Source of the DNA: a virus
DNA length: 64,000 bases
Direction: 5' to 3' (one strand)
Virus record (IMG/VR): IMGVR_UViG_3300046002_008717
Coordinates: 47,729-111,728 of that record
Shown here: positions 4,297 to 55,187 of the stretch, in pieces
How positions within the stretch are numbered: the stretch's first letter is position 1
Layout of the letters: each line of letters starts with the position of its first letter
The notes under the pieces: model-generated
Databases searched by the model: none
The model's input: the letters and a program-made list of their open reading frames with translations, nothing else
Told to the model about the DNA's origin: nothing
Position numbers and translations under genes: made by a program

Positions 4297-4324
4297 ATTA
4301 TACATTTTAATGGCATATTGTTTC
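4297..4324 (-). promoter_or_regulatory. Putative middle-type promoter GAAAC-N17-TATAAT for the glycosylation operon
   Basis: Minus strand reads GAAAC aatatgccattaaaatg TATAAT, ~20 nt upstream of the ATG at 4276. Same architecture as at 36177 and 18311. Confidence 0.6.
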
Positions 4325-4359
4325 TTATATTGGCAGGTAAAACTAGTTATATTATATTT

Positions 4360-4367
4360 GATATATA
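4360..4367 (+). promoter_or_regulatory. Putative late promoter GATATATA
   Basis: Exact motif 18 nt upstream of ATG 4386; one of 12 copies found upstream of gene starts. Confidence 0.7.
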
Positions 4368-4385
4368 AAAGAAAGTAGTAATTAA

Positions 4386-6899
4386 ATGGCTTTCTATCCT
4401 GAAAATAAAATACCAAAAACTGGAGCTCCTGTTTATAACGGTAACGGCGAACAATATATTATTTCTGATCCTAGATATTCCTATCATGACGGATTACAAA
4501 ATACTGACAAAATAAAGAAATCATCTAGCGATAATATATATGATACCACTGGTGGAGCTAATGCTAGAGCTAAACAAATAGGATGTTCAGGTTACCACGA
4601 AACCCTGATAGACGGTATTAAGTACTATATGCCTTGCGAAAATGTAGATTCTTATGATTTACGTATAGAGCAACTAGATAGTGCCTTAAACTTCACTTAT
4701 ATAGGTAACTATAGGGTATTATCATGGGATAAACCTTTTGAAAACGTATCATTGTATAAGGGATGGATTATTGATGCATCACATAGCAATAGTGCTGAAC
4801 CTGTATTGGACGCAGATGATATTTCAATAGAATTTAGATATAGCATAGATGGAAAAACCTGGTCGTTATGGGTTAATGTAGGAACTGCGCTAATGGGTCT
4901 TACTAATGAATTTTCATTAATAGATGAAATAGTACTAGATCCAAGTAATAAATTTTATCCTGAATTTAGATTCACATCAGTTATAAAGGATGCTAATGGA
5001 TCAAATATTTATGATCAAGGTGATGTAATAGATCCTTCCATAGTTATAGTTGCTTTTAATTTAGATTTAACCTATGCTGCTGCTCAAGAAATTCCTATCA
5101 ATAGACCATCTATCATATGCTCAAATGAGGTTTCAAACAGACCTGTAATTTTCTCCGATTGTAATTTTACATTTAATCCATATGCTGTAAACAAAGCACT
5201 AAACCTATATCAGGATTTAAGTTCTATGGTTAATAAAATATTTGGACTAGATGCAAATTATTATTCTATTCAGCCACAAGGTAGAGGGAAAGATGTAATA
5301 TTAAAGGAATATACACTTTTTGATGTTGTCGAGGAAAAATGCGTCAAGGTAATGCTAAACCAAAACCAATTCCCTGATAATAAAATAAACTTTGATCCAT
5401 TCGGAACAAATTATCAGGAGCCATTTGAAATACAGATGGATAAATTATATTTTGAATCTATTTTTGGAAAGGGATCACAACCAAGAAAGAGAGATATCAT
5501 ATATTTCCCAATGACTAATAGAATATATGAAATAAATGCTACGTATTTATTCAGAGATTTTATGAATGCACCAGTATATTTTAAAATGGAAATCAAAAAA
5601 TATACGCCAAAAAGTAATACATATTTTAAAGATCCTACACTTAAGGAGGAGCTCGATGGAATAATGATCACCACCAGAGACCTTTTTGGAGCTGATGTTA
5701 CGGATGAAGAATTGAAGATAACAAACCCTCAGCAATATGCTACTACTATAAATCAAATGTCTCAAGATCCAATTAGATCCTATGTATATAAAAATCTTGC
5801 TAATATAGGATATGATTTAAATAATAATTGGACTATAGTTTTTAATAATTATTATGACATGTCAACATCATTTAATGATGATATCGATTTTATAGCAGAA
5901 CCACATAAATATAGAACTGCAATAGGATATAAGGTATTGCCGAAATTAGCAGCATCTGAGGAATTAGCATATACTGCTTGGTTTAGTATTAAGGATCTCT
6001 ATGACAATAACCAGATGTTGAAGCGTCCATTCCCAATTATAAATATGGTACTAGAATCATATGACAGTGATTTTCTATATTTCGATACAACACCCAAAAA
6101 ACACAGACTGGAAAAATGGCTGAATTACGATAGTAATCCTGAGGGATATGTATCAATAAGTGGGGATCTAACACATACGGGAGGATATCACGTAATCGAT
6201 ATTATAGATGATTATAAATTTAAAGTCGAAAATCTTAATATCGATTTTGATAATGACCTACCAATACCATGGAAAATGCAAAAAGCACAGTCCAGAAACT
6301 TAATAAGCGGTATCATGGGAGGTACAGGCGGTACAGGAGGAACAGAAGCTAATATTGGTACCGGATTTAGAATTGACATAGTACACTCCGGTATAATAGA
6401 TGAAAACAATAATCCATTTTTGGGTGAGGGTAGTCTTATTATAAAATTGAATGATAAAATAATAAATTCACCATTACAATTTAAGCCTGTATTGGGTGAT
6501 TGGTATGGTTTGGTTGTAAATTTTTCCAATGTATATAAACAAATAGCCATGAATATATGGGGTATGTCATATGATCCAACATCAACTGGCGAACAATCAA
6601 GTAAATTAATAAAAATACATGATGATGCCAGATTAATAAAAGATCCAATTATATTTAATCACACTTCTAGTATAAATAGAGATAATGATAGTCCATTCTA
6701 TGGTGACGATACAAATGGATATAAAATATATACTAGTCCAATTTATTTAACTAATATAAGATTATTTAAGAATATGATAGATATAGATAACCAATCAGCT
6801 GTATTAAATCAGAATATAGTTAGAGATTCGCATCTTTCTCATATAATAGATAATGCTAAACCTCTTCTCTCTATTCCTAAATTTGCAAGAAATAAATAA
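4386..6899 (+). CDS. Neck/head-closure protein (T4 gp14-like domain) with long extensions
   Basis: Central FG...EPFEIQMDKLYFESIFG...PRKRDIIYFPMTNRIYEI...YFKMEIKKY resembles gp14 (P..GDLIYFP...FEI). Located upstream of terminase and sheath. Confidence 0.6.
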   Translation: MAFYPENKIPKTGAPVYNGNGEQYIISDPRYSYHDGLQNTDKIKKSSSDNIYDTTGGANARAKQIGCSGYHETLIDGIKYYMPCENVDSYDLRIEQLDSALNFTYIGNYRVLSWDKPFENVSLYKGWIIDASHSNSAEPVLDADDISIEFRYSIDGKTWSLWVNVGTALMGLTNEFSLIDEIVLDPSNKFYPEFRFTSVIKDANGSNIYDQGDVIDPSIVIVAFNLDLTYAAAQEIPINRPSIICSNEVSNRPVIFSDCNFTFNPYAVNKALNLYQDLSSMVNKIFGLDANYYSIQPQGRGKDVILKEYTLFDVVEEKCVKVMLNQNQFPDNKINFDPFGTNYQEPFEIQMDKLYFESIFGKGSQPRKRDIIYFPMTNRIYEINATYLFRDFMNAPVYFKMEIKKYTPKSNTYFKDPTLKEELDGIMITTRDLFGADVTDEELKITNPQQYATTINQMSQDPIRSYVYKNLANIGYDLNNNWTIVFNNYYDMSTSFNDDIDFIAEPHKYRTAIGYKVLPKLAASEELAYTAWFSIKDLYDNNQMLKRPFPIINMVLESYDSDFLYFDTTPKKHRLEKWLNYDSNPEGYVSISGDLTHTGGYHVIDIIDDYKFKVENLNIDFDNDLPIPWKMQKAQSRNLISGIMGGTGGTGGTEANIGTGFRIDIVHSGIIDENNNPFLGEGSLIIKLNDKIINSPLQFKPVLGDWYGLVVNFSNVYKQIAMNIWGMSYDPTSTGEQSSKLIKIHDDARLIKDPIIFNHTSSINRDNDSPFYGDDTNGYKIYTSPIYLTNIRLFKNMIDIDNQSAVLNQNIVRDSHLSHIIDNAKPLLSIPKFARNK

Positions 6900-6901
6900 A
6901 T

Positions 6902-9549: not shown

Positions 9550-9557
9550 GATATATA
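9550..9557 (+). promoter_or_regulatory. Putative late promoter GATATATA
   Basis: Exact motif in the intergenic region upstream of the sheath ATG at 9587. Confidence 0.7.
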
Positions 9558-12905: not shown

Positions 12906-13460
12906 ATGGCAGGATTATCACACTATAACAATGGAATATCGGCAATCAATAAACAGGAGCCTGTTTATTTGAATCAATTCGAAGTAAGTATAATACCTCC
13001 TGGAGTTATAGCGGGAGGTAAAATATTACTGGAGCATGTCACAAAAGTTAGTGGACTTTCTCTAGATAAAAATCCAGGAATAATACAACAGAAATTTAAA
13101 TTCGCTAAAAGGAATTATGCTGGTGGTAAACCTGAGAATACCTTTATGGATTTGAGTTTAAGTTTTAATGTCAATTTGGACGAATCTAATTCAATGTATG
13201 TTTTCAAAACATTAAGACAATGGTCGGATTTAATATACAATCCGCTAACTGGAGCAATGGGATTAAAAAATGATTACGTCGGAACTATAGTCATATCGAT
13301 ATTTAATAAGCAGGGTGATGTATATAGAAGAATTACATGTAAAGATGCATTTCCAATTAAACCTATAACTCCGATGAATCTAAATTATACATCTACAGAT
13401 CTATATAAAATAGATGATATGGTTTGGGCAGTTGATGTTTGGGAGGATCTATTCATATAA
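12906..13460 (+). CDS. Tail tube protein, paralog 1 (gp19-like)
   Basis: Directly after the sheath; EPVYLNQFEV, RNYAGG, RQWSDLIYNPLTG, DAFP motifs of gp19-type tubes. Confidence 0.85.
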   Translation: MAGLSHYNNGISAINKQEPVYLNQFEVSIIPPGVIAGGKILLEHVTKVSGLSLDKNPGIIQQKFKFAKRNYAGGKPENTFMDLSLSFNVNLDESNSMYVFKTLRQWSDLIYNPLTGAMGLKNDYVGTIVISIFNKQGDVYRRITCKDAFPIKPITPMNLNYTSTDLYKIDDMVWAVDVWEDLFI

Positions 13461-13475
13461 AATAATAATAAATAA

Positions 13476-14051
13476 ATGTCAGGATTATCACATTTTAACA
13501 ATTCAAAAGCGGGAATACTTAATAGAGAACCAGTTTTTCTTAACCAATTCTCTCTTATTATAAATCCTCCAGCAGGAATACTGGATGCAGGAAAACAATT
13601 TAATGGAGAAAGTATACTTGCACAGCAAGTAAAATCCATAACAGGATTGGCTGTAGATATCACACCAGCACAAACAGTGGAGCAACATTATAAATTTGCT
13701 ACCAGAAGATATGCAGGCGGTGAGCCATCTACTAGTGATATGGCGTTATCTATGGAATTTGAAGTCAATTTGAATGATAAGAATTCTATGGAAGTATATA
13801 AAATATTAAGACAGTGGTCAGATTTAATCTACAACCCTCTAACTGGAGCTATGGGATTGAAAACAGATTACGTTGGATCTATGCTTATTACTGTATTTAA
13901 CAAAAGAGGTGATATATTTAGAAAAATTAGAATACCATCATGTTTCTTAAGTGAAGCTATAAACCCAATGGATCTTGATTATGAAACTCCAGCTATTTAT
14001 ACAATAACTGCTTCATGGATATGCGATACGTGGGAAGATTTATTCATATAA
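13476..14051 (+). CDS. Tail tube protein, paralog 2 (gp19-like)
   Basis: Clear paralog of 12906..13460, sharing RQWSDLIYNPLTGAMGLK.DYVG and C-terminal WEDLFI. Confidence 0.85.
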   Translation: MSGLSHFNNSKAGILNREPVFLNQFSLIINPPAGILDAGKQFNGESILAQQVKSITGLAVDITPAQTVEQHYKFATRRYAGGEPSTSDMALSMEFEVNLNDKNSMEVYKILRQWSDLIYNPLTGAMGLKTDYVGSMLITVFNKRGDIFRKIRIPSCFLSEAINPMDLDYETPAIYTITASWICDTWEDLFI

Positions 14052-14072
14052 ACGTTAAAGTTTTCAAAATCC

Positions 14073-14101
14073 GAAACCTTATGTCAATTACAAGCTAAGA
14101 T
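14073..14101 (+). promoter_or_regulatory. Putative middle-type promoter GAAAC-N18-TAAGAT
   Basis: Similar to the GAAAC/TAnnnT motifs elsewhere. It points into a stretch with no substantial ORF that ends in a terminator. Confidence 0.45.
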
Positions 14102-14107
14102 AATTAT

Positions 14108-14256
14108 CTAATGGGACCCGGCGATAAATACTATTACTATATAGTAATCTAAGAGGGTTTAATTTATATTCACTAGTTGAACCCTAAACTTATTATCTAA
14201 CCCCAGTTTTTGAATAAAAGTAATAATTAATAAAGACCTAATTTGGTCTTTTTTTT
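14108..14256 (+). ncRNA. Candidate structured small RNA (~150 nt)
   Basis: Nested complementary segments TGGG/CCCA, GATAAATA/TATTATC, ATTACTAT/ATAGTAAT and AGGGTTTAA/TTGAACCCT between a promoter-like motif and an intrinsic terminator. Only a 13-codon ORF is present. Confidence 0.4.
14232..14256 (+). terminator. Intrinsic terminator
   Basis: AAAGACC-TAATTT-GGTCTTT followed by a T run. Confidence 0.7.
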
Positions 14257-15503: not shown

Positions 15504-15511
15504 GATATATA
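15504..15511 (+). promoter_or_regulatory. Putative late promoter GATATATA
   Basis: Exact motif 7 nt upstream of ATG 15519. Confidence 0.6.
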
Positions 15512-17036: not shown

Positions 17037-17077
17037 TAAATAATCTGCATTTTATTTTTTTTACCGTATTTATAAAA

Positions 17078-17085
17078 TATATTTG
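17078..17085 (+). promoter_or_regulatory. Putative host-type (Bacteroidota TAnnTTTG) promoter element
   Basis: TATATTTG preceded by a T run and CCGTATT, 15 nt before ATG 17101. Near-identical context at 29650; motif also at 49854. Confidence 0.6.
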
Positions 17086-17100: not shown

Positions 17101-17697
17101 ATGGATAAAAAAATCGGGAAAGATAGTATAACTAGTAATGGCCTGCATTTTCATAAAGGATTAAATTTTATGGATGATATATTCATGTCTCATAAGATGT
17201 GGGTAGTTAAAAAATCAAAATACGAGGGGGAATATATCGAAGCTTATTCTGATGATGTAGATTCTCCATTTTTATATCCAGATTATGGATCAAAAGATGA
17301 ATTATATTTAGAGATGGCATCAGTGTGGTCAAAAAATTCTCATTGTTCCAGAATGAAAGTTGGATGTCTTATAATCAATAACAAATCTATAATTTCCGAT
17401 GGTTATAATGGATCACCAGAGGGATTTCCTAACGTGTGCGAGAGCGATGATAATATAACCCTCCCGTACGTATTACACGCGGAAGCAAATGCAATTACCA
17501 AATTAGCAAAAGGTACGCAAAGCTCGATTGGATCAACTTTATATGTAACATTATCGCCATGTTATGAATGTTCCAAATTAATTATACAGTCGGGGATTAA
17601 AAAAATTGTATTTTCTGAGGTATATAGAAACCCTGAATCAATTTTTTTCTTAATAGAAGCAGGAATAGAGGTTTTAAAAATAGATAGAAATAAATAA
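17101..17697 (+). CDS. dCMP deaminase
   Basis: KVGCLI, DGYNG, HAEANAI and SPCYEC zinc motifs. Confidence 0.93.
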   Translation: MDKKIGKDSITSNGLHFHKGLNFMDDIFMSHKMWVVKKSKYEGEYIEAYSDDVDSPFLYPDYGSKDELYLEMASVWSKNSHCSRMKVGCLIINNKSIISDGYNGSPEGFPNVCESDDNITLPYVLHAEANAITKLAKGTQSSIGSTLYVTLSPCYECSKLIIQSGIKKIVFSEVYRNPESIFFLIEAGIEVLKIDRNK

Positions 17698-17698
17698 T

Positions 17699-18310
17699 AT
17701 GAAAAAAGAAACAAGCATTCAGAAGTTGGCTGAGAATTTTATAAATAACAAATCAGAGAAAACATTTAAATATCTATTTGAAAGATTGAGACCCGGCTTA
17801 TTAAATCATTGTTATCTAATACTGAAAGAAAATGATCTAGCCGAAGATGCTTTTTTAAGCGCCATGGCTAAAGTATATTTTAAAATAGATCAATACCAAC
17901 AGGACAAGGGTAATTTTTCAACATGGTGTTATAATATAGGCAAAAATGAGTCATTGCTTATCATAAAGGAGAGAAAAAAATACTATTCGCATAATGATAC
18001 GGAAATGGAATTTATTTCTGCAAAAAATGAAATAGGCGATATAGGTGGTTATTATGTGATGGAGGATGATAGTACAAATTCATTCTTTAATGATGAAAAT
18101 AAATTCGAAATGATATATGAAGCAGTATTGGAGGAAATAAGGGATCTACCCGATCTATATAGAGATATCATGATAGACAGGGAATTGCATAAAATGAAAT
18201 ATAAGGACATAGCAGAAAAGTATGATATGAAAAAAAGATCAGTAGCAACCAGAATTAGAAGAGCTAGAAATAAAATAACTAAGAAAATAGAAGAAAACCC
18301 AAAAATGTAG
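17699..18310 (+). CDS. Phage ECF-like RNA polymerase sigma factor
   Basis: Region 2 (AEDAF...YFKIDQY...GNFSTWCYNI.KN) and region 4 HTH (LPDLYRDI...MKYKDIAEKYDM..RSVATRIRRAR). Confidence 0.88.
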   Translation: MKKETSIQKLAENFINNKSEKTFKYLFERLRPGLLNHCYLILKENDLAEDAFLSAMAKVYFKIDQYQQDKGNFSTWCYNIGKNESLLIIKERKKYYSHNDTEMEFISAKNEIGDIGGYYVMEDDSTNSFFNDENKFEMIYEAVLEEIRDLPDLYRDIMIDRELHKMKYKDIAEKYDMKKRSVATRIRRARNKITKKIEENPKM

Positions 18311-18338
18311 GAAACCTTACATTTTTATTATCTATAAA
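18311..18338 (+). promoter_or_regulatory. Putative middle-type promoter GAAAC-N17-TATAAA
   Basis: GAAAC cttacatttttattatc TATAAA upstream of ATG 18357. Confidence 0.55.
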
Positions 18339-18356: not shown

Positions 18357-18800
18357 ATGTTTAGAATATTTAAAGTAATAAAAGAAATAATATTATATAG
18401 GGAATATATAAAAACTATAAAATACGAGGCTATGAATTCTCCTCTATGGAGTAGGAGAAATTTAAGAATCGATTATCTTAATCGTATATACACTGTTGTT
18501 AATTTGCCAGCTGCTATATTGATGTCTACCGATTTACCAAAGGATGCTAGACCTTCATTTGTTATAAACGAAATAAAACCAACTAACGAATATTTAAAAT
18601 CCATAAATTTGGAGGAAATCCTTACTATGTGGATAGAACCTATAAAAAATACAAATGAGGAATCTTATCTTGTTGTATATCAATTTTTGTTTAGACAAAT
18701 AAGTTGGTTATGGATTCTTAGATTTATCACACAATTGGTATTAATATTTTTAATAATTTATAATTTTAGTACTATATCTACATTTTTTAATAGTCTGTGA
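18357..18800 (+). CDS. Hypothetical protein with C-terminal transmembrane segment
   Basis: 147-aa ORF with a hydrophobic C-terminus (WLWILRFITQLVLIFLIIYNF). Confidence 0.7.
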   Translation: MFRIFKVIKEIILYREYIKTIKYEAMNSPLWSRRNLRIDYLNRIYTVVNLPAAILMSTDLPKDARPSFVINEIKPTNEYLKSINLEEILTMWIEPIKNTNEESYLVVYQFLFRQISWLWILRFITQLVLIFLIIYNFSTISTFFNSL

Positions 18801-19615: not shown

Positions 19616-19663
19616 GAAACCTTTTTAAAAATTACACTTAAATATATAAAATAATAAAATATT

Positions 19664-20269: not shown

Positions 20270-20277
20270 GATATATA
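20270..20277 (+). promoter_or_regulatory. Putative late promoter GATATATA
   Basis: Exact motif 17 nt upstream of ATG 20295. Confidence 0.7.
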
Positions 20278-22401: not shown

Positions 22402-22409
22402 GATATATA
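22402..22409 (+). promoter_or_regulatory. Putative late promoter GATATATA
   Basis: Exact motif 22 nt upstream of ATG 22432. Confidence 0.7.
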
Positions 22410-25323: not shown

Positions 25324-25360
25324 AAAAAAATGTAGTACTTTTTAGTACTACATTTTTTTT
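25324..25360 (+). terminator. Intrinsic terminator
   Basis: AAAAAAATGTAGTACT-TTTT-AGTACTACATTTTTTTT. Confidence 0.85.
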
Positions 25361-25364: not shown

Positions 25365-25392
25365 GAAATCTTTTAGTATTTTTAACTAAGAT
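25365..25392 (+). promoter_or_regulatory. Putative middle-type promoter GAAAT-N17-TAAGAT upstream of the gp55-like sigma
   Basis: GAAAT cttttagtatttttaac TAAGAT directly after a terminator and 17 nt before ATG 25410. Confidence 0.5.
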
Positions 25393-25409: not shown

Positions 25410-25769
25410 ATGGCAAAAGAATATGTAAAAAATAGCGAATTATTAATTGCTATAATAGAATCAAAAGAAAAAGGAGTATTAACTTCCGATACTATAGAAA
25501 TGTTTGATCTTATAATAAATGGGATTTCTAAAAAAATGTCATATAAGGATCCTAACGACAAAGAAGATTGTATGGCATTTGCTATGGAGGATCTTTGTAA
25601 ATATTGGAATAGATTCAATCCTGAAAAATCTAATAATCCATTTTCATATTATACTCAAATAGCTAAAAATGGTTTTGCTAAGGGGTGGAAAAAAATTCAT
25701 CCTCCAAAAAATCCTAAAACTATCCCATTCAGTTATATAACGGGTGATGATAATTCATATAATATCTAA
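25410..25769 (+). CDS. Late-transcription sigma factor (T4 gp55-like)
   Basis: YVKNSELL...FNPEKSNNPFSYYTQIAKN signature of gp55. ATG 25410 preferred over the track's TTG start at 25392. Confidence 0.85.
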   Translation: MAKEYVKNSELLIAIIESKEKGVLTSDTIEMFDLIINGISKKMSYKDPNDKEDCMAFAMEDLCKYWNRFNPEKSNNPFSYYTQIAKNGFAKGWKKIHPPKNPKTIPFSYITGDDNSYNI

Positions 25770-26285: not shown

Positions 26286-26293
26286 GATATATA
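26286..26293 (+). promoter_or_regulatory. Putative late promoter GATATATA (overlapping TATAAATA)
   Basis: Upstream of the first portal ATG at 26315. Confidence 0.7.
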
Positions 26294-27958: not shown

Positions 27959-27962
27959 TAAT

Positions 27963-29625: not shown

Positions 29626-29649
29626 ATTTTTAATCCCGTATTATAGATT

Positions 29650-29657
29650 TATATTTG
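29650..29657 (+). promoter_or_regulatory. Putative host-type (TAnnTTTG) promoter element
   Basis: TATATTTG with upstream CCGTATT, as at 17078; heads the ligase/clamp-loader operon. Confidence 0.6.
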
Positions 29658-35148: not shown

Positions 35149-35156
35149 GATATATA
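35149..35156 (+). promoter_or_regulatory. Putative late promoter GATATATA
   Basis: Exact motif 15 nt upstream of ATG 35172. Confidence 0.65.
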
Positions 35157-36176: not shown

Positions 36177-36204
36177 GAAACAATTGCAATAAATTCTGTA
36201 TAAT
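36177..36204 (+). promoter_or_regulatory. Putative middle-type promoter GAAAC-N17-TATAAT
   Basis: GAAAC aattgcaataaattctg TATAAT upstream of ATG 36217. Confidence 0.6.
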
Positions 36205-37857: not shown

Positions 37858-37894
37858 AAAAGCTTTCTTCGATATATAGAAGAAAGCTTTTTTT
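37858..37894 (+). promoter_or_regulatory. 13-bp perfect hairpin/terminator whose loop is the late motif GATATATA
   Basis: AAAAGCTTTCTTC-GATATATA-GAAGAAAGCTTTT, then TTT and ATG 37895. Confidence 0.75.
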
Positions 37895-41224: not shown

Positions 41225-41232
41225 GATATATA
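41225..41232 (+). promoter_or_regulatory. Putative late promoter GATATATA
   Basis: Upstream of the protease/capsid operon. Confidence 0.7.
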
Positions 41233-41246: not shown

Positions 41247-43217
41247 ATGTATAAAATGTCAATAAATAAAATGTTAAACGAGAATTTGGTTTTTATTCTA
41301 GATAGACAAACTTCTATCCTGGAATCAACTAAGATTGATTCTGAGCATTATGTACTGGAAGGTACGGCTGCTGTTTTCGGAAAGGAAAACAACAATGCAA
41401 GAATTTACGAAGAAGCAGAATATCTACCTCATCTAAATTATCTTAATGAGAAAATAGCTCAAAGAAGATTAGTTGGTGAATTAGATCACCCTGAGAAATT
41501 TGACGTTTCGCTTAAAAACATTTCACATATAATAGAAGGTCTTAATTACGATAAGGATACAAGAGAATTAAAAATAAAAGTTAGACTTTTAGATACCCCG
41601 ATGGGTTTAATAGCTAAAAATCTTGTTGATGCTGGTGTACCTTTATCTATATCATCTAGAGCTGCTGGATCAGTAGGTAATGATAAAAAGGTAATGATCA
41701 AAAAAATATTTACATATGATCTAGTTGCTGATCCTGGTTTTCAAGATGCCCAACTAGGTAGAGTATATGAAAGCGTTGGATATTCATCGGAAGATTTCTC
41801 TAATATTAAGGATAAAGATGTAACTAATAACTTATTTTGTTTAAATGAGCAATTGGGTCTAAAAAATGAATCTGGTATGAAGATATATAAAGTTGAAAAT
41901 AACGAGGAATTTAATAAACTCGTATCGACATTGGACAAAAATAAACAAACACTCATGGAGAATAATGAATTCGTTACTACTGAAGATCTTAATGGATATT
42001 CAATCTTTCTAAAAAAAGAAATGGATGCTATGAATACCAAGATTTCTGAACTTAAAGAGTCAAAGGAATCATTAACTGAATCAGCTATAGAAGATAGAAA
42101 TACAGAATTAGAAGAAAGAGTTATTAAATTAGAAAAATATTCTGAATATTTAGCTGAAAATCTGGACAATGCTATTAAATACGGAGAATATCTTGCAAAA
42201 AATTTAGATGAAAGTATTAACTATAGTAAATATCTTGCTGAAAATTTAGATACTAATATTACATATACTAAATCTGTTGATGAAAATGTAACTAAAGGAA
42301 TTTCTTATTCTGAATATGTTGCAGAAAGTGTTGATAGAAGTATAGAATATTCCAAATATCTTGCTGAGAAAGTTGATCAGAATATACAATATTCTGAATA
42401 CATAGGTGAAAATTTAGAAAAAGGAATAGCTTATAGCGAATATCTAGGTGAGAATTTAGAAAAAGGAATAGCTTATACCGAGTATCTTGCAGAAAATTTA
42501 AATAATGGAATTAAAAAGACTGAAGCATTAGATGAGACAGTTAATAAAAATATACAATATGCTAATTATTTAGCAGAAAATGTTAACAAAGGTTTGGATT
42601 ATTCCGAATATATTTCAGAGAGATTAACAAAATCTATTTCATATACTGAATATATAAGTGAAAGTATAAATACTAACACTATGAAACCAAGTGAAACATT
42701 AAGAGAAGGCGTAGAACTTTCATCTGAAGCAGGATTAAACGAATCTGGTTTTGGTGGAGATTATACAGATCTTACAAGTAAAATAGATAATTTGATAGAA
42801 TCAGTTAAAACACAAAAAACTGAATCAGATATAAATGAAGCTTCTAATAAAATGAAGCAAGTAGCCAATACACAAGAGGCTAAAGAAGAAGAAGTTCTTA
42901 ACGAAAAGGAAAACACTAATAAAACTGGACTTAAGTTTATAGACGAAATTCCTGAAGATTATGCTAAAGTATGGGAATCACTTACAGATGGTCACAAGCA
43001 ATCAATTATTGCTCAAAGCCACACCTGGAATTTAGATACACCATACCAGATCAGAAACTTCTGGTCAACACGTCAACTTGGAACAGCTCCAATAGGGGTT
43101 CAAAAATTAGACGAGAATGAAAACACGGAAATATCCAATACACCAACATTAGGTTATAGCAACGATTATATGGCTGCTATCGCTTCAGCATTGGATAAAA
43201 AATTCCAAATAAGATAA
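41247..43217 (+). CDS. Prohead protease (gp21-like) fused to a scaffold/core domain
   Basis: NNNARIY, GELDHP, ISHII, LDTPMG, ISSRAAG, TYDLVADPGF. Followed by a coiled-coil region with 14-aa repeats. Confidence 0.92.
   Translation: MYKMSINKMLNENLVFILDRQTSILESTKIDSEHYVLEGTAAVFGKENNNARIYEEAEYLPHLNYLNEKIAQRRLVGELDHPEKFDVSLKNISHIIEGLNYDKDTRELKIKVRLLDTPMGLIAKNLVDAGVPLSISSRAAGSVGNDKKVMIKKIFTYDLVADPGFQDAQLGRVYESVGYSSEDFSNIKDKDVTNNLFCLNEQLGLKNESGMKIYKVENNEEFNKLVSTLDKNKQTLMENNEFVTTEDLNGYSIFLKKEMDAMNTKISELKESKESLTESAIEDRNTELEERVIKLEKYSEYLAENLDNAIKYGEYLAKNLDESINYSKYLAENLDTNITYTKSVDENVTKGISYSEYVAESVDRSIEYSKYLAEKVDQNIQYSEYIGENLEKGIAYSEYLGENLEKGIAYTEYLAENLNNGIKKTEALDETVNKNIQYANYLAENVNKGLDYSEYISERLTKSISYTEYISESINTNTMKPSETLREGVELSSEAGLNESGFGGDYTDLTSKIDNLIESVKTQKTESDINEASNKMKQVANTQEAKEEEVLNEKENTNKTGLKFIDEIPEDYAKVWESLTDGHKQSIIAQSHTWNLDTPYQIRNFWSTRQLGTAPIGVQKLDENENTEISNTPTLGYSNDYMAAIASALDKKFQIR
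42138..42675 (+). repeat. ~13 coding tandem repeats of 14 aa (42 bp), consensus YSEYLAENLDKGIx
   Basis: YSEYLAENLDNAIK, YGEYLAKNLDESIN, YSKYLAENLDTNIT ... YTEYISESINT. Confidence 0.85.
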
Positions 43218-44985: not shown

Positions 44986-44993
44986 GATATATA
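44986..44993 (+). promoter_or_regulatory. Putative late promoter GATATATA
   Basis: Upstream of ATG 45016; a GATATAAATA variant also occurs at 44962. Confidence 0.7.
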
Positions 44994-45015: not shown

Positions 45016-46155
45016 ATGATAAATATGCCTTCCTTCTCTGAGTTTCTTGAATACGATTCACTTATAGAGAGTATCGATATTAAATTGGTAGAAGAATTAA
45101 AAGAAATTGATATTACTAACCTTGAATATAATATAAACGAAGGTCGAATTGGTAATATATTAAAAAATAAATTATCTAAATTCCTATTAGGATCTTTTTC
45201 TGGTATAGGTATGTTAGATCAGGCGGTAAGCATAATATTATCTTTAGAAATAGATCTGGTAAAGAAAGAATATGCACTTGAAGATACTATAGCCAATATA
45301 GAAAAAGAGATAAAAGAAACTAGTGATAATGATAGAAAACTTGCATTGCAAAATGAAAAAGTTGCAAAGATAAGAGAATTTGAAGCATTCAACAAAGCAC
45401 AGGAACTTAAAATTAAGAAATCCAAAAATGTTGCTAAAAAATTAGTGGATGATAATCATAGAAGAAGAGAATATTTGGAGGGATGCTACGCTGAAAACGC
45501 GCTTGCACTTGCTGAGGTTGAATATGATTTAGCAAAAGCCCACTCTGAAGATCAGAGTAAACTTAGTAAATATGCAGATAAGGTAAAAACCGCTAGTGCT
45601 GAAGTTGATGCATTAGCAAAGGAAATGGAGGAAGAAGTTGATAGTGCAAATAAACGAAAATCCAATCTGGATGATTTTTCAATCAACCCAGAACCTGAGA
45701 AGAAATTATTAACCAAAAAAAGAGGTGGTGATATAATTAAAAGGAAAAATGAATTAGAAAAAGAAATATCCGATACTAAAGCTGATATGGAAAGAAAGCT
45801 TAATGCATTAGAAGCTAAACTTAAAAGATCAGATAAACCACTTAGTCCTAGATATTTAGAAAATAATAAATTGGATATAATAGAAATGGCTGCAACTCTT
45901 GATTATAAAAGAAATCTTTTAGCAACTCTTTCAAGTTTGGGTAAATCCGTTGTTGGGATAGATAAGAATCTAGATAACAAAGATGCTGTATCTAATGCTT
46001 TATCTAAAGTAAATGCAAATGCAAACACTGCAAAATCTGCATCTGGACCTCTTTCTAAAGAACTTAAAAATAAGCTTTCATTAGTTGGTATTAATAAATC
46101 TGGTAAATTAACTCTTGATACGATTGAACAAATCAGAAAAAAATTAAATTTATAA
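45016..46155 (+). CDS. Coiled-coil putative internal head protein
   Basis: N-terminus PSFSEFLE..LIES, INEG; helical. Appears paralogous to 46155..47051. Confidence 0.6.
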   Translation: MINMPSFSEFLEYDSLIESIDIKLVEELKEIDITNLEYNINEGRIGNILKNKLSKFLLGSFSGIGMLDQAVSIILSLEIDLVKKEYALEDTIANIEKEIKETSDNDRKLALQNEKVAKIREFEAFNKAQELKIKKSKNVAKKLVDDNHRRREYLEGCYAENALALAEVEYDLAKAHSEDQSKLSKYADKVKTASAEVDALAKEMEEEVDSANKRKSNLDDFSINPEPEKKLLTKKRGGDIIKRKNELEKEISDTKADMERKLNALEAKLKRSDKPLSPRYLENNKLDIIEMAATLDYKRNLLATLSSLGKSVVGIDKNLDNKDAVSNALSKVNANANTAKSASGPLSKELKNKLSLVGINKSGKLTLDTIEQIRKKLNL

Positions 46156-47051
46156 TGACTTTAAAATTTAAGGAATGGTCAGTATTGAACGAATCTGGCA
46201 TGGAAGATAAAATTAAAGATTGGTTTAGTAGCAATTTTGGTGGGGCTAATAGTAAATTAAATAATCTATTAGGTGAATATAAATCTGCTGAACTTGAATA
46301 TCTGGATGAATGGGAGAAAATACATGATGCCATAGATAAACTTTCATTAGAAAGATCACAGATCAAAAGCGATCCTGCGGAATTGAAAAAAACCGATAAA
46401 TTTATACAGAGAAATAATGAATCTCTTGCTGCTGGTGAAAAAGCACATTCTAGAAAGATTGATTATATAATGAATAAGGTTAAGAAAGTTATAGACGAGG
46501 ACGAAAGACTTAAAAAGTATTGGGAATTAAATAAATCTAAACTTGATTCAGAAATAGCAGAGGATATGTATAATAGATCTAAGGATCTAGCAAGTAGCAC
46601 ATTATCTGGTGAATTATATAATAAATATAAAGCAGCTGTATTAAAAGCAAAAGATAGGGATACCGAATTCAAAAAAGAATATGGTGATCTTTTAAGCGGT
46701 TCTGATTTTAGATCGGAAAGCTCAGGTACTAATAGAAGTAAAGTAATTGGATCTGCTGGTGAAGTCAGTGGTTATGCTAAAATGAATCTTGGTGATTTTT
46801 CTAGAAGCGTTAAAAACATGGATCCTAAACAAATAAAAGATCTAGTTGCTAAATTAGTACAGAATAGAAATGAATTATATACGCAAATGGAAGTAGAGAG
46901 AGAAGCTCTTAATGATCTTATTTCTAAAAAAGAAGGTGATGGCGCAACTAAGGAAAGCGCTGCTAATAAGGTTACTGAAATCCGTGCTAAATATATGGAT
47001 AAAATTAAGGAATTACGTTCAAAAATAACAATAGCAAGAAGAAATGATTAG
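46155..47051 (+). CDS. Coiled-coil putative internal head protein
   Basis: N-terminus LKFKEWSVLNES; helical. Confidence 0.6.
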   Translation: MTLKFKEWSVLNESGMEDKIKDWFSSNFGGANSKLNNLLGEYKSAELEYLDEWEKIHDAIDKLSLERSQIKSDPAELKKTDKFIQRNNESLAAGEKAHSRKIDYIMNKVKKVIDEDERLKKYWELNKSKLDSEIAEDMYNRSKDLASSTLSGELYNKYKAAVLKAKDRDTEFKKEYGDLLSGSDFRSESSGTNRSKVIGSAGEVSGYAKMNLGDFSRSVKNMDPKQIKDLVAKLVQNRNELYTQMEVEREALNDLISKKEGDGATKESAANKVTEIRAKYMDKIKELRSKITIARRND

Positions 47052-47304
47052 TTATAAAGATTATAGTAAATTAACGGAGGCATCAGATAATACTAAGTTA
47101 CAAGAGATTAAACTTAATATTGCTAAAAAATTTGATGATATAACAGAAGCTAAAAAATTAAAAAAACCAGGGGATAGAAATTCCGAAATTCTAAGTGTAG
47201 ATAAGCAAGCTGCTATATATTTGGAAATTTCTGGATTGATGAAAATGCTTTCCGGAGAGATGAGAAAGCCAACAGTGACTAAGCCGTCTACAGATACATA
47301 CTAA
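47044..47304 (+). CDS. Small putative internal head protein
   Basis: MISYKDYSKLTEA. Confidence 0.6.
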   Translation: MISYKDYSKLTEASDNTKLQEIKLNIAKKFDDITEAKKLKKPGDRNSEILSVDKQAAIYLEISGLMKMLSGEMRKPTVTKPSTDTY

Positions 47305-47317
47305 AAAATAAAAAGAC

Positions 47318-49792
47318 ATGAATAAGAATCCACAAATAAACAATCCAGTAGCTAAAAATTTATTAGATAGCTACAATTACGGTAAACTTTTTGAAAACGA
47401 ATTAGTCGATGCACTATTAAATAAAATAACTGCTAATGCTTTGGAGGTTTTCAAAATACTTATATTTGATATAGCACCAAAAAGGGATAGGAATCCAGAA
47501 GCTACCAGAGCCAAATTATCACTTATGGCTAATGCTAAAAATGTAAAAGAATTATCTTCTATATTAACTAATGATACTATGGATGTTGATGTGGTAAATT
47601 CTAAATATTCGGAAGCAAAAAGATTATATCAGCTTTCACTTGAGAAGTTTGCAGAAGCTTTAGAAAGAGGAGTAGAGATAAGTAAAGAAAAAGAAGAAGG
47701 CATACTCGCATACGCTAAGAATGCGGCACAAAAATTACAAAACTCATTTGACAATAGGGCTAAAGAATATCAAGCTGAATTGGATAGTAAAACACAGAAC
47801 AGCTCAGAAGAATCTTTCTATTTCAGTGACGATATCCTTAATGAAAATGGATTATTTACCGGATATAAAGGTAGAGTCGATTCATTGAGAAAAATGCTAG
47901 TAAATTTAATAAGCTCAGCTGAAGGTAAGGATGGTAAAAATGGGTATGGTAGAGATTGGAAGAGAACTTTTCTTGATCTTGATGAGAAAAGAAAAGCATT
48001 AGATAACGGAAGAGGCGGATTTGGTGAAAAGGACAAAAGATCACTAGATGAACTTGAAAAACAAGTAGATAAATTTAGACTTGATTTTTTAACTGCATCC
48101 AATAAATCTATAGATAATGATTTATTGAAAATTCAAAATGATGAGGAGATCAAAGGATCATATTCGGATGTTACTGATTTAACAACAGAGGCACTCGAAC
48201 TTAAAACTAGGGCTGATGCACAAAGAAATATTGCAATAGGCGAGATAGGTGATGACCATAAGACGAAGGAAGGTGATTTTATTAAAACCTTATTTCCGCT
48301 TAAAAGAGGTGATACCGATGCTGATGATAAAATAAAAGAAAGCGGATTAATAGCAGCTATACAAACAGCTATTGCTAATGGTATTAAATCAGCAGGTACT
48401 TTGTTGAGATCTAAAGGAGGTCCTAATGGTAAATATGGTCCTGCTACTACATCTATAATAGCCACTATACAAAAATCTGTAGGTAATAAGAATACTAATG
48501 GTAGTTTAGATCAAGCACTATTGGATGATATTATATCATCTGACTGGGTTTCTGAAAAAGATAAAGCAGCCATACAAAAATCTTTGGATATAATAAGAGG
48601 TAAAATGCACGAAAGTAATACTGGTGTTATGAAATTTGGTGATTTTCTTAATATAACTATAAACGAATCTAAGATAATAATAAACAATTCAGATTTCGAA
48701 AAGGAACTAGCAAACCAATATAAAGATATAACAGGTAATGATATGACACGTGCAGCTTCTAATAAAATAGGGGACAATGAGGGTGACGATATTACAGGAT
48801 CTGCAGGGAAAGAAGTAGATAAACTTGCTTCTTCTCTTAGAAAAAATTATAATTTAAAAGTTGAGGGTAGTGACTTTATCAGAAATGATGGATCATTAAA
48901 ACCTGCATATGATACTAAATTCATAAAAGCATGGAATTCAGCTTTAGCTGCTACCGCAGAAAACCCAAAAGATTATTCATATTTCTTTTTTAATAACGGT
49001 TTATATAATATCAATCTTGCTAGCACATCATTAAAGTTTCCTTGTAACTGGGAAAGATTTGAAAAACTGGATGAAAGTGATGATCCATTAGTATTTTTTA
49101 ATAACTATCTTAAAGGGTGGGCAACTTTTGGTATGATCAGACCAGCTGAAAGATATAACGGAATAAATTCCATATTGGGAATGAAGGATAAATTAAAATT
49201 GCCTGGAGTATACAATAAGATGGATTTAACTATAGTTAATAAGGTAACACCGTTTATAAAATTTGATGATTTAAAAGGTGGTATTAAAGAAGCATTCAGA
49301 ATACTTACCGATGATGATGATTGGGGAGGAAATGAATTTGTAGCATTTAATAATTTATTGGTTTCTGTTGCTAATGCTATATCATTTGATGGTGAAAAAT
49401 TTATAAGCTGTTTAAAATGGCTAAATGACGATGAGCTTAAATACAAAACAGAAAAAATAGCTAGTGATTCCATAATTACTAGTACATCCTCCGATACTGG
49501 TAAGGTCGTACTCGGTTTTGCTGGTAGCAAAATAATAAATAATACAGTAGCTTCGTACGAGAATATAGAAATAAAAAGAGGTTTAAAATCTCATAAGGAT
49601 GTTAGCAGTTTGGATCCATTTCTTAATTACGGAGGTAATAGGGGACAAAGAAAAGCATTATGTAAAAATTGTGAATATATTGGGTCCGAGATATATCCAG
49701 GAATCAAAGTACATTTACAAAGAATGAACATGGTGAAATTTTCAGATTTCCCTAATGACAGTAAAGGGTTTAAGTGTAAGGAGATTAAATAA
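47318..49792 (+). CDS. Large protein with a peptidoglycan-binding-like segment, possibly virion-internal
   Basis: PLKRGD...IQ.AI...NGKYGPATTSIIATIQ...NG resembles PG_binding_1; internal MKFGDFLNITINES motif. Confidence 0.55.
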   Translation: MNKNPQINNPVAKNLLDSYNYGKLFENELVDALLNKITANALEVFKILIFDIAPKRDRNPEATRAKLSLMANAKNVKELSSILTNDTMDVDVVNSKYSEAKRLYQLSLEKFAEALERGVEISKEKEEGILAYAKNAAQKLQNSFDNRAKEYQAELDSKTQNSSEESFYFSDDILNENGLFTGYKGRVDSLRKMLVNLISSAEGKDGKNGYGRDWKRTFLDLDEKRKALDNGRGGFGEKDKRSLDELEKQVDKFRLDFLTASNKSIDNDLLKIQNDEEIKGSYSDVTDLTTEALELKTRADAQRNIAIGEIGDDHKTKEGDFIKTLFPLKRGDTDADDKIKESGLIAAIQTAIANGIKSAGTLLRSKGGPNGKYGPATTSIIATIQKSVGNKNTNGSLDQALLDDIISSDWVSEKDKAAIQKSLDIIRGKMHESNTGVMKFGDFLNITINESKIIINNSDFEKELANQYKDITGNDMTRAASNKIGDNEGDDITGSAGKEVDKLASSLRKNYNLKVEGSDFIRNDGSLKPAYDTKFIKAWNSALAATAENPKDYSYFFFNNGLYNINLASTSLKFPCNWERFEKLDESDDPLVFFNNYLKGWATFGMIRPAERYNGINSILGMKDKLKLPGVYNKMDLTIVNKVTPFIKFDDLKGGIKEAFRILTDDDDWGGNEFVAFNNLLVSVANAISFDGEKFISCLKWLNDDELKYKTEKIASDSIITSTSSDTGKVVLGFAGSKIINNTVASYENIEIKRGLKSHKDVSSLDPFLNYGGNRGQRKALCKNCEYIGSEIYPGIKVHLQRMNMVKFSDFPNDSKGFKCKEIK

Positions 49793-49807: not shown

Positions 49808-49836
49808 AAAAAAGAGGACATCGTCCTCTTTTTTTT
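49808..49836 (+). terminator. Intrinsic terminator
   Basis: AAAAAAGAGGAC-ATC-GTCCTCTTTTTTTT. Confidence 0.85.
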
Positions 49837-49853
49837 GTGTATGGTGAAATAAA

Positions 49854-49861
49854 TATATTTG
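49854..49861 (+). promoter_or_regulatory. Putative host-type (TAnnTTTG) promoter element
   Basis: TATATTTG between a terminator and ATG 49873/49879. Confidence 0.55.
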
Positions 49862-49872: not shown

Positions 49873-50457
49873 ATGTATATGATTTATGTATTCGAAGGAC
49901 CAAGAAATTCGGGGAAAACTTATCTTTCCCAAAAAATATCGGAAAATATAGACGATTTGTCTAGATTTCAATTCGATTTTGTTAATTATTTCGATCTATT
50001 GAGATTAACAAGTAAGGATAATACCGAGGCCCATTCTTTTGCTATGGGTAAAGAACTCATGATTATGCAGATTGCCAGAGATTTGAACGGTAAAAATTGT
50101 ATAGGTAACTTTATACACGATAGAGGGATTCTAACTGTTCTTGCTTGGGGTTTATCTGAAAATAGAATAACCAAAGCGGAAGTAATTAGGCAAATTGAAT
50201 TTATAATAAAGAATGATTTATTATCAGACATTCATATTATTTATATTTGTGGAGATAATCCGGATACGCAGGATAGGAACAAGGATCAATGGGATTATGC
50301 TGACAATAACGATTTAGAAAAAAATGCATTCGAGTTTGTTATATCTAAATTTAATGAGATTAAACCTAATTGTATACAAAAATTCTATAATAACTTTAAA
50401 CCAGATTCTCTTGAAAAATTGGAAAATATTATAAGAGAACATATAAAAACAAATTAA
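49873..50457 (+). CDS. P-loop dNMP/thymidylate kinase-like protein
   Basis: FEGPRNSGKT Walker A and HDRG motif. Start probably 49873 or 49879 rather than the GTG at 49837. Confidence 0.75.
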   Translation: MYMIYVFEGPRNSGKTYLSQKISENIDDLSRFQFDFVNYFDLLRLTSKDNTEAHSFAMGKELMIMQIARDLNGKNCIGNFIHDRGILTVLAWGLSENRITKAEVIRQIEFIIKNDLLSDIHIIYICGDNPDTQDRNKDQWDYADNNDLEKNAFEFVISKFNEIKPNCIQKFYNNFKPDSLEKLENIIREHIKTN

Positions 50458-51864: not shown

Positions 51865-51881
51865 TATTTCTATTTTAGTTA

Positions 51882-51889
51882 GATATATA
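51882..51889 (+). promoter_or_regulatory. Putative late promoter GATATATA
   Basis: Upstream of ATG 51909. Confidence 0.7.
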
Positions 51890-51908
51890 GCTTAAATAAA
51901 CTATAGAA

Positions 51909-52526: not shown

Positions 52527-52548
52527 TAAATAAAATAAATAGATTACT

Positions 52549-52860: not shown

Positions 52861-52877
52861 AAAAATATAATATACAT

Positions 52878-52907
52878 AAAAAAAGAGAGCATATGCTCTC
52901 TTTTTTT
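52878..52907. terminator. Bidirectional terminator (30-bp perfect palindrome)
   Basis: AAAAAAAGAGAGCATATGCTCTCTTTTTTT between convergent genes. Confidence 0.85.
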
Positions 52908-53625: not shown

Positions 53626-53676
53626 TTTGTATTTTTAATAATGGTATATATATACCTACAATCAAAAAATTAAAGT

Positions 53677-53684
53677 GATATATA
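53677..53684 (+). promoter_or_regulatory. Putative late promoter GATATATA
   Basis: Upstream of ATG 53704. Confidence 0.7.
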
Positions 53685-53703
53685 ATAAAAATAAACTTAG
53701 ATA

Positions 53704-54135
53704 ATGAATAAGATATATGACTATTTAGCATTTAATGATTCAAAGAATCCTTCAAATACTGGAGATTATACTTTTGGTATGGAAGTAAAATATGTTGATA
53801 TAGATATACATAATAAACCTGAAGAATATACAGATATAAATGATGCTAAAGCTTTTATACAATATACTGTAAATTTCATAATAAAAAAAGCTGGAATAGA
53901 TTCTATAGATTTTGTGATTAATTCAATCGAATTTGAATTTGAAGTTGACGATTCACCAAATGCTCCCAAAGAATTTGATATGGACTTAGTTCCAGGAAAA
54001 ACTATAGATTTTGGACAGATCCAAATAGAAAAGGGTGATTCGTGTATACCTACATATCCTACCAAATTGGAAATAGATATGAATAAATCTACAGAGCCTA
54101 GCAATTTTGATGTCATTGTGCATTTTAATAAATAA
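53704..54135 (+). CDS. Hypothetical beta-rich protein
   Basis: 143-aa ORF, N-terminus MNKIYDYLAFNDS. Confidence 0.7.
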   Translation: MNKIYDYLAFNDSKNPSNTGDYTFGMEVKYVDIDIHNKPEEYTDINDAKAFIQYTVNFIIKKAGIDSIDFVINSIEFEFEVDDSPNAPKEFDMDLVPGKTIDFGQIQIEKGDSCIPTYPTKLEIDMNKSTEPSNFDVIVHFNK

Positions 54136-54148
54136 AAATTAAATAAAA

Positions 54149-55102
54149 ATGAAGATTTTAAAGTTTCCAAATTTTATAATGAACGAAAGTGCACCTCTAA
54201 TATATGATGAAATTACGGGAGTTAAAAAAGTAATGGGCGATTTATATGAAATTACTGCGGAGGATTTTATAGATTCTGAGGGAACACCACCATTCGGTGT
54301 AATATTAGTAACTAAGGATATACAGAAAAGTATATGTCTAAGTTTCTTTGATTTTAAGGGTAAGCAAAAAACTGAGTTATGGATACCAAAGGAGGCTATA
54401 GATATAGAGAAAAAACAAAACGATTATATCATTACAATAGATCCTGATAAAGAATGGTTTTCTAAAGATGCTAATATGAACTTAGTTGATGATTTTATAG
54501 AGGATCTATATGATTGCAAGATGCGTGATAAGTTATATGATTCATCTGCAATAAATACAGTAAAAGAGGACGTTATTAGCATAATGGATATACTTGATAT
54601 AGAATGCAATATAAGGGATATAAAAAAGATATCAGATAATAATGAATACGAGGTAACTTTAGATAATGATATTTTCATAGAGATAAAAAAAAGAAATTCT
54701 AATGATCTTATTGGAGAATTTAAATTTTATGTTACTGAATCATCTTCCCATCCGTCATTTGAAATAAAAAGTATGTCTGATAAGATACTATTATCTTTTT
54801 ATCTTGATGATGCCTATACAACTGAGGAGGAATCGGATATAAGCAATATAAATAAAGATCCCAAATTAAATTATCTTCTAAAAAAATCATTAAATCTTTC
54901 TACCAATACGGACAAGGAAAGACTTTATGATTACTTCTGTGATTATATCAAATCTAACAATTGGGTACATAATAATGAAATTGATGCTAAAACAGAGGCT
55001 TTATATAAGGAAAGATCTAAAAAACTGAAAGAATTGAAAAAAATCATATCCAGTTTTGTATCTAGCGAAAAAATAGAAAAAGTATATCCTAGTAATATTT
55101 AA
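54149..55102 (+). CDS. Hypothetical protein, possibly virion-packaged
   Basis: N-terminus MKILKFPNFIMNES. Confidence 0.7.
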   Translation: MKILKFPNFIMNESAPLIYDEITGVKKVMGDLYEITAEDFIDSEGTPPFGVILVTKDIQKSICLSFFDFKGKQKTELWIPKEAIDIEKKQNDYIITIDPDKEWFSKDANMNLVDDFIEDLYDCKMRDKLYDSSAINTVKEDVISIMDILDIECNIRDIKKISDNNEYEVTLDNDIFIEIKKRNSNDLIGEFKFYVTESSSHPSFEIKSMSDKILLSFYLDDAYTTEEESDISNINKDPKLNYLLKKSLNLSTNTDKERLYDYFCDYIKSNNWVHNNEIDAKTEALYKERSKKLKELKKIISSFVSSEKIEKVYPSNI

Positions 55103-55187
55103 ATATTTAATGAAACAAAACACCTATTGTTATTCTATAAAAGAGTAACGAGATGGTGTTTTTACTTTCTTATATATTATTAATCTA

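Follow-up and report, generated by a model that had tools for sequence, protein, structure and literature searches.

The question raised by the stretch of viral DNA described here is how a large phage with a Bacteroidota-type host might time the expression of its genes. The stretch (hereafter the window; 64,000 nucleotides (nt), bases 47729-111728 of the 111,728-bp IMG/VR virus contig IMGVR_UViG_3300046002_008717, genome G000 below) encodes two sigma-like proteins, one of the extracytoplasmic function (ECF) type and one resembling gp55, the late sigma of phage T4. Three classes of upstream motif occur in this DNA; they are placed ahead of genes, sorted by the function of those genes and connected to the two sigma genes by a wiring that is conserved in relatives. 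On balance, we think it probable that the phage times expression by passing the host core RNA polymerase between successive sigmas, and we infer which sigma would read which class as follows. In a first step, the primary sigma of a Bacteroidota-type cell would read class i promoters (a T-run, CCG, 11-12 nt and TAnnTTTG), which head nucleotide-metabolism and replication genes and the unit encoding dCMP deaminase and the ECF-type sigma. In a second step, the weakest link of the scheme, the ECF-type sigma would read class ii promoters (G(A/G)AAC or GAAAT, 17-18 nt and TAnnA(T/A)), which precede the gp55-like gene, glycosyltransferase operons, genes for recombination and repair and one small non-coding element. 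In a third step, by analogy with T4, the gp55-like protein would read class iii, the box GATATATA, which lies some 20 nt upstream of the genes for virion, fibre and lysis proteins. Coordinates given below are window positions, and features are on the plus strand, unless stated otherwise.

The contig, the completeness of which was estimated at 39% using CheckV, has a G+C content of 30% and carries nearly every gene on the plus strand. No match was obtained when 9.3 kb of it were compared with GenBank phages using megablast, and the best cultured or curated matches of the two sigma-like proteins, 25-48% identical, come from 'huge phage' genomes and Lak megaphages of Prevotella. No related locus was obtained with the ECF-type sigma as query, its exact peptide words not being shared, and relatives were reached via gp55-like loci: 267 loci in IMG/VR encode a gp55-like protein at 80-90% identity, on contigs of up to 434 kb, and five of those contigs (G001-G005), complete or nearly so at 270-434 kb (99% complete in the case of G005), were used for comparison. 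The gp55-like protein of the present contig is closest to that of G001. The wiring upstream of the ECF-type sigma was examined in eight relatives. Bacteroidetes have been described as a phylum without Shine-Dalgarno sites and with the promoter consensus TTTG/TAnnTTTG (PMC6847099). A Shine-Dalgarno-like tetramer was found at 3% of the genes of the contig and an A at position -3 in 63%, which fits translation in Bacteroidetes (PMC6847099), and a scan of the E. coli type for sigma-70 promoters returned 120 matches against 122.9 by chance.

The ECF-type sigma is a group 4 member of the sigma-70 family comprising 203 residues (17699..18310), assigned using Pfam, TIGR02937 and the SigW structure. 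The Pfam domains Sigma70_r2 (33 bits, cut-off 24) and Sigma70_r4_2 (38.6 bits, cut-off 25.7) were detected and no others, such that the protein consists of regions 2 and 4 only, with region 1.1 and region 3 absent, the architecture by which ECF sigmas are recognised. It clears TIGR02937 (sigma70-ECF superfamily; 57.0 bits, cut-off 42.9) with SigW as the best named model; no equivalog or subfamily model was passed, the equivalog cut-offs all being missed by a wide margin. The best solved structure is likewise B. subtilis SigW, aligned collinearly (residues 15-196 on 13-184 of 187). Copies of the protein in the eight relatives are 62-66% identical and share an invariant region 4.2 helix, and more than 300 metagenomic homologues were found, for which the JGI label is ECF subfamily. 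The gene starts 1 nt after that of a dCMP deaminase (17101..17697; Pfam dCMP_cyt_deam_1, 2.7e-25; phrog_174, 2.8e-52), which is the first gene of the sigma-carrying unit. The gp55-like late sigma (25410..25769; 119 residues) was assigned from phrog_234 (late sigma factors, 1.7e-14) and from its alignment with the T4 gp55 chain 7d7c_F (E 3.6e-5), in which residues 4-97 fall on residues 9-114 of 185.

The positions of the motifs relative to these two genes carry the argument. A class i site comprising the T-run, CCG, 11 nt and the box TATATTTG (17055..17085, box at 17078) lies 15 nt ahead of the deaminase gene, and a TAnnTTTG box is present ahead of the deaminase-sigma unit in all eight relatives, 593-656 nt before the start codon of the sigma, with the full long class i motif in four of them. 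A class ii variant (GAAAT, N17, TAAGAT; 25365..25392) lies 17 nt ahead of the start codon of the gp55-like gene, and GAAAY-N18-TAnnAn precedes that gene in 75 of 80 related loci (33 of 38 distinct sequences), with a diverged spacer. An initial reading made from the letters of the window (hereafter the sequence-only reading) had placed a host-type motif at the head of the operon encoding the ECF-like sigma and a class ii copy directly upstream of the gp55-like gene, and both placements are borne out by this conservation. The unit of each sigma is thus headed by the promoter class of the previous tier, here and in the relatives, as in an SPO1-type cascade.

The three classes also partition by gene function, as had been claimed. 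Late units encode the neck-like protein, the large terminase, the sheath, two tube and two portal proteins, the prohead protease and the major capsid protein, together with three fibre-like proteins and an endolysin-like protein. Class i units encode the dCMP deaminase, the ECF-type sigma, ligase, clamp loader, guanylate kinase and an exonuclease, as well as dTMP-kinase-like and asparagine-synthase-like proteins and an AAA protease, while class ii units encode exonucleases, UvdE-like and DnaQ-like nucleases, UvsX, DnaB, SbcC, glycosyltransferases, a Nudix protein, the gp55-like protein and a gp4-like head completion protein. Virion and lysis genes were found 14 times in late units and twice in others, as against none and 19, respectively, for the other annotated genes (Fisher p 5e-8), and this sorting is conserved in relatives. 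When loosened versions of the three patterns were used, at least one motif was present in 31 of the 39 intergenic regions of at least 25 nt.

The coordinates initially reported (TATATTTG at 17078, 29650 and 49854, and seven GAAAC/GAAAT sites) hold, GATATATA lies shortly before gene starts at 13 sites, and the statistics of each class were assessed by count and by placement. The raw count of the late box is ordinary (15 copies of GATATATA in the window, 16.0 in shuffles), the bare 8-mer not being over-represented. Its 24 copies in the contig are all on the plus strand, and 15 of them fall within the 60 nt before gene starts where 0.32 would be expected (p 8e-23), which places GATATATA first among 65,536 8-mers; it is also the top upstream 8-mer in G005 (p 1e-44) and in G001 (p 8e-70). 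An alignment of 113 sites contains no information at any of 45 upstream positions, that is, no -35-like partner, and displays a conserved A 5 nt after the box and a median distance of 20 nt to the start codon. The box precedes sheath, tube, portal, protease, capsid, terminase and fibre genes, as a -10-only late promoter would. Late promoters of T4 are 8 bp long and lack a -35 box (PMC2988020), and the sequence-only reading had likewise stated that gp55 reads a short -10-only late promoter. Homology to gp55 together with this -10-only geometry makes it likely, by analogy, that the gp55-like protein reads the late class.

For class i, the bare 8-mer TATATTTG had been offered as the class marker and fails as such, since it occurs at chance level (17 copies in the window against 13.0) and intergenic DNA holds only four of its 28 copies in the contig; the true motif is longer. 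In G005 and G001, both complete relatives, TAnnTTTG shows enrichment before genes (p 2.6e-4 and 7.5e-8, respectively) and forms part of a long motif consisting of a T-run of roughly seven bases, two further bases, CCG, 11-12 nt and TAtATTTG. This motif was found near 20 gene starts of G005 and 31 of G001, many of which belong to small clustered genes. A full fit to the long motif was obtained at 17078, 29650 and contig position 6896. The -7 box TAnnTTTG, correctly named at the outset as the element of the Bacteroidota primary sigma, is present at these three positions and at 49854 (consensus from PMC6847099). A TTTG -33 box is not present, the upstream element being instead the T-run followed by CCG, which lies outside the published Bacteroidetes consensus; the -33 box is weak in F. 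johnsoniae (PMC6847099). The match to the host -7 box makes the host primary sigma the likely reader of class i. At some class i sites the T-run was observed to lie within the loop of a short hairpin.

Class ii stands out both by count and by geometry. The strict pattern occurs nine times in the window against 3.3 expected, a number reached by none of 100 shuffles, and all ten intergenic copies of GAAAC in the contig are oriented toward the next gene, nine of them with a second box at N17-19. When all 1024 5-mers were ranked as partners of TAnnA[AT] at N17/18, GAAAC came first in this contig (8 against 0.53, p 3.5e-8) and again in G005 (13 against 1.0, p 9e-12); in G001 the -35 box is GGAAC as well as GAAAC. 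Among 63 intergenic GAAAC copies, counted without requiring a second box, the spacing to TAnnA[AT] peaks sharply at N17 (ten sites) and N18 (19 sites). N19 accounts for six sites and each of the spacings 12-16 and 20-22 for 1-4, and the number climbs again at N23 (nine sites).

With start codons only about 20 nt away, GATATATA might, as far as the sequence goes, act in the mRNA leader, and one or more of the three motifs might be RNA processing signals, translation signals or regulator sites, with transcription organised in some other manner. We regard this as very improbable given the strict strand bias, the placement of motifs directly after terminators, a two-part geometry with the 17-18 nt spacing typical of sigma-70 family promoters, the match to the known Bacteroidota -7 box, the conserved A 5 nt past GATATATA, the presence of a class ii site at the head of a non-coding element and the availability of two phage sigma genes to read such sites.

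Reading of class ii by the ECF-type sigma is suggested by the following. Sigma-W promoters carry TGAAAC at -35, and AAC, named in the sequence-only reading too, is a hallmark of ECF -35 boxes (PMC5758882), so that the -35 box of class ii, (T)GAAAC, equals that read by the closest characterised sigma. The Bacteroidota primary sigma needs TTTG in the -7 box, which is absent from class ii. No match to AsiA or MotA (PF09010, PF09114) was found in G000 and four complete relatives, in a search that had no positive control. Finally, the sigma and the motif class co-occur throughout the clade and are both absent in the cultured Bacteroidota jumbo phage MA9V-2 of Chryseobacterium (OR513085.1), which encodes a gp55-like gene and a 387-residue sigma, and has neither an ECF-like sigma nor a GAAAC class. 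Sites with GAAAC or GGAAC at -35 and TAnnAT at -10 are candidate targets of the ECF-type sigma. In MA9V-2 the top upstream motif is TCATATGT and TAnnTTTG is not enriched in intergenic regions; its promoter set differs from that of the present clade.

Several observations weigh against the proposed relay. Within the contig class i is thin, with three full sites and an intergenic enrichment of TAnnTTTG that is not significant (p 0.15). The box before the gp55-like gene is GAAAT rather than GAAAC, here and in most relatives, and five related loci have no class ii motif ahead of the gp55-like gene and yet carry the ECF-type sigma; because the sigma is still present in them, these five loci provide no natural test. 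The gp55-like protein is without the C-terminal third of T4 gp55, nothing being aligned past T4 residue 114, and it is in the C-terminal part that the clamp-binding tail of T4 gp55 sits (PMC2988020). A gp45-type clamp (PF02916, PF09116) was not found in G000, G001 and G005, although the clamp loader is present and a diverged clamp is possible. The outgroup comparison consists of a single distant phage, MA9V-2. Typical ECF sigmas have a promoter of their own type before their own operon and a co-encoded anti-sigma; the present gene has no upstream GAAAC (class ii) site and hence no sign of autoregulation, and no anti-sigma partner was recognised beside it. The -10 box of class ii, TAnnAT, resembles primary-sigma boxes and is unlike the CGT-type -10 boxes of the ECF sigmas studied (PMC5758882).

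This primary-like -10 box, together with the missing ECF hallmarks of the phage sigma and the absence of an assigned function for about half of the genes, which could hide an activator, would also suit a different arrangement, in which class ii is read by host polymerase with its own sigma, aided by an unrecognised phage activator acting at GAAAC in the manner of MotA/AsiA, or by a host ECF sigma, while the phage ECF sigma does something else, such as redirecting host genes. We consider this unlikely, as the class ii boxes are without the TAnnTTTG that a Bacteroidota primary sigma needs, AsiA and MotA family matches are absent in five genomes in the search made without a positive control, GAAAC/GGAAC is a typical ECF -35 box with TGAAAC read by SigW, the nearest characterised sigma, and the phage sigma and class ii are both conserved in the clade and both absent from the one outgroup. 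Reading of class ii by the phage ECF-type sigma is thus the preferred interpretation. The earlier proposal that an ECF sigma replaces MotA/AsiA stands as regards the absence of AsiA and MotA matches, and as regards the reader of class ii is a prediction from the promoter and protein features given above.

The last point to be set against a relay of three tiers is a third phage sigma. Four of the five complete relatives (G001-G004) encode an RpoD/RpoS-like sigma of about 300 residues, a length close to that of Bacteroidota primary sigmas, for which the JGI label is 'primary sigma factor'; in G001 it lies on the minus strand (G001:C1:311094-311990) behind a class i promoter. The present contig may carry it too, because its gp55-like protein is most like that of G001 and the contig is incomplete. 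The third sigma was not found in the 99% complete G005, which has class i promoters and at least 13 class ii sites, one of them before its gp55-like gene; because G005 has both classes without that sigma, neither depends on it. A search for a fourth promoter class that the third sigma might read yielded only fragments of class i, and the most economical guess is that this sigma supplements the host primary sigma at class i promoters. It might instead read class ii, maybe from a gene in the missing 61% of the genome, with the ECF-type sigma reading another set of promoters or host genes. Its presence in four of five complete relatives, its RpoD/RpoS-like character and position behind a class i promoter in G001, and the preference of primary-like sigmas for TATAAT-like -10 boxes all speak for this reading, which we nevertheless judge quite improbable: GAAAC-N17/18-TAnnA[AT] is the top two-part motif of G005, which has no third sigma, no fourth motif class turned up that could be the target of the ECF-type sigma, and the primary-sigma length and JGI label of the third sigma fit a class i role better. 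Of the three-tier cascade as first proposed, the three classes and their conserved wiring stand, and the number of tiers may be incomplete given this third phage sigma. More tentatively, and with rather less confidence than would make it probable, an ECF-type sigma that pairs an AAC -35 with a TATAAT-like -10 box may be the middle switch of a widespread clade of Bacteroidota jumbo phages, operating in most members within a network of four sigmas (host primary, phage primary-like, ECF-type and gp55-type).

The phage sigma cascade is a textbook concept, so the gain would not be a new principle but the novelty of the combination and of the host phylum, the combination being an SPO1-like sigma replacement at the middle step and a T4-like late step in phages of Bacteroidota. 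We know of no experimental work on transcription control in Lak-related or other huge Bacteroidota phages. In SPO1, early genes are transcribed with the host sigma, a phage sigma encoded among them then steers the core polymerase of the host toward middle promoters, and late genes require an additional phage sigma function (PMC13401047). As with sigma-A, gp28 and gp33/gp34 of SPO1, each tier in the present phage appears to encode the next sigma. Unlike in SPO1, the late factor is a half-sigma of the T4 gp55 type with a -10-only promoter and not gp33/gp34, the putative middle sigma is of the ECF type and the host is of the Bacteroidota type with a TAnnTTTG primary promoter. With T4 the phage shares a gp55 homologue, virion genes headed by an 8-bp late promoter that has no -35 box, genes for virion and replication proteins resembling those of T4 and a late-sigma gene under a pre-late promoter. 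It differs from T4 in that no AsiA or MotA match was found and a whole sigma appears to take the middle step, in that the late box is GATATATA and not the T4 sequence, and in that the gp55-like protein has 119 residues instead of 185, without the clamp-tail part and with no gp45 family match. In phiEco32, gp36, a distant sigma homologue, captures host core polymerase for post-early genes (PMC12276001); the present sigmas would likewise take host core polymerase, but one sigma with the helper gp79 serves both middle and late genes there, as opposed to two successive sigmas and two promoter classes here. The ECF-type sigma shares with B. subtilis SigW the architecture of regions 2 and 4, the best profile and structure match and the putative -35 box, and differs from SigW and other ECF sigmas by its putative TAnnAT rather than CGTA -10 box, by the lack of an autoregulatory promoter and by the lack of a recognisable anti-sigma.

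'Moraphages' and the Lak and Mahaphage groups are large uncultured phages with predicted Bacteroidota hosts and a sigma factor among their core genes (PMC12619734; PMC7162821). The present phage resembles them in being large, uncultured and related to Lak phages, in its predicted Bacteroidota-type host and in its sigma genes; the papers on those phages list sigma genes without promoter classes or a cascade, and in the literature on Lak-related, 'huge' and 'moraphage' genomes no description of promoter classes or of a cascade was found. With the three promoter models, the early, middle and late gene sets of hundreds of uncultured genomes (270-430 kb) could be delimited, and the two predicted phage sigma-promoter pairs, if orthogonal as expected, are candidate parts for Bacteroidota genetics. 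The middle step would represent a solution different from that of T4, a whole sigma taking the place of MotA/AsiA. Should the four-sigma network be real, no phage would be known to have a more elaborate sigma relay, and the pairing of an AAC -35 with a TATAAT-like -10 box, if correct, would constitute a new promoter specificity for group 4 sigmas.

The remaining promoter sites of the window can be assigned to units as follows. A second complete class i site (T-run, CCG, 11 nt, TATATTTG; 29627..29657, box at 29650) lies behind a terminator, at the head of the genes for ligase, clamp loader and guanylate kinase, and a partial one (T-run, 17 nt, TATATTTG, without CCG; 49830..49861, box at 49854) heads a dTMP-kinase-like gene, 11 nt before the ATG at 49873. 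Among class ii sites, the one at 4297..4324 on the minus strand (GAAAC, N17, TATAAT) heads a minus-strand glycosyltransferase operon (Glycos_transf_1 in 2291-4276), and that at 18311..18338 (GAAAC, N17, TATAAA) starts at the stop codon of the ECF-type sigma gene and heads the genes of a 147-residue membrane protein and an exonuclease (phrog_298). The 147-residue protein (18357-18800), predicted from an open reading frame (ORF) and carrying a C-terminal hydrophobic segment, is the next after the sigma gene and lies behind the first class ii promoter; it was considered as a candidate anti-sigma, for which no support was obtained, there being no family match in Pfam, PHROGs or Atlas and no fold match. 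A further class ii site found by the pattern scan (GAAAC, N17, TATAAT; 36177..36204) heads the genes of the UvdE-like endonuclease and the DnaQ-like exonuclease. Two of the copies described initially as looser are indeed weak candidates: at 19616..19643, ahead of a 178-residue gene, the second box (GAAAC, N17, TTAAAT) misfits TAnnA[AT], and at 55112..55141, ahead of a 213-residue gene, the spacing is N19 (GAAAC, TATAAA). The terminator hairpin that closes the late unit preceding the gp55 promoter (25324..25359, just before that promoter) was scored on the minus strand by the terminator scan and can act in both directions because its palindromic stem is flanked by an A-run and a T-run.

Behind the class ii site at 14073..14101 (GAAAC, N18, TAAGAT) lies a non-coding element of about 100 nt, one of two copies, with a terminator (14232-14251) at its end. 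The element is present at window positions 14052-14200 and at contig positions 23259-23400, with 92% identity over 142 nt; both copies lie behind GAAAC-N18-TAAGAT and the window copy closes with the terminator. No Rfam family was matched by the duplicated element and its fold is not significant (z -1.24). A 41-nt part of it recurs ahead of uvsX in G001.

Thirteen GATATATA sites of the window lie shortly before gene starts, and twelve of these are intergenic. They are located ahead of the neck-like and large terminase genes (4360..4367), the tail sheath gene and two tail tube genes (9550..9557), a 505-residue gene weakly similar to tape measure proteins (15504..15511), four small genes without an assigned function (20270..20277), a 914-residue gene without an assigned function (22402..22409), two tandem portal genes (26286..26293), two small genes without an assigned function (35149..35156), genes 37895 and 38698 (37871..37878), the prohead protease and major capsid protein genes (41225..41232), four genes without an assigned function at 45016-49792 (44986..44993), genes 51909 and 52549 (51882..51889) and genes 53704 and 54149 (53677..53684). 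The thirteenth site, at 38637, lies within the end of the preceding gene, 54 nt ahead of gene 38698. The site at 37871..37878 sits in the loop of a terminator-like hairpin (37860-37890), and because of this position a single element may serve both as the terminator of the class ii unit before it and as the start of the late unit that follows. Two further copies of GATATATA were observed within ORFs, at 41882-41889 and 55559-55566, and the latter may serve, as an internal late promoter, the tail-like genes at 57041-63999, which are otherwise without a late box.

The two tandem portal genes (26315-29585; 547 and 540 residues) are both full length, both match phrog_213 and share the late promoter given above, and the two tail tube genes (12906-14051) are tandem paralogues. 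Outside the window, contig positions 14986-15613 comprise 628 nt without an ORF of at least 45 residues in a simple gene call; their composition looks coding, and they may represent a broken or frameshifted gene.

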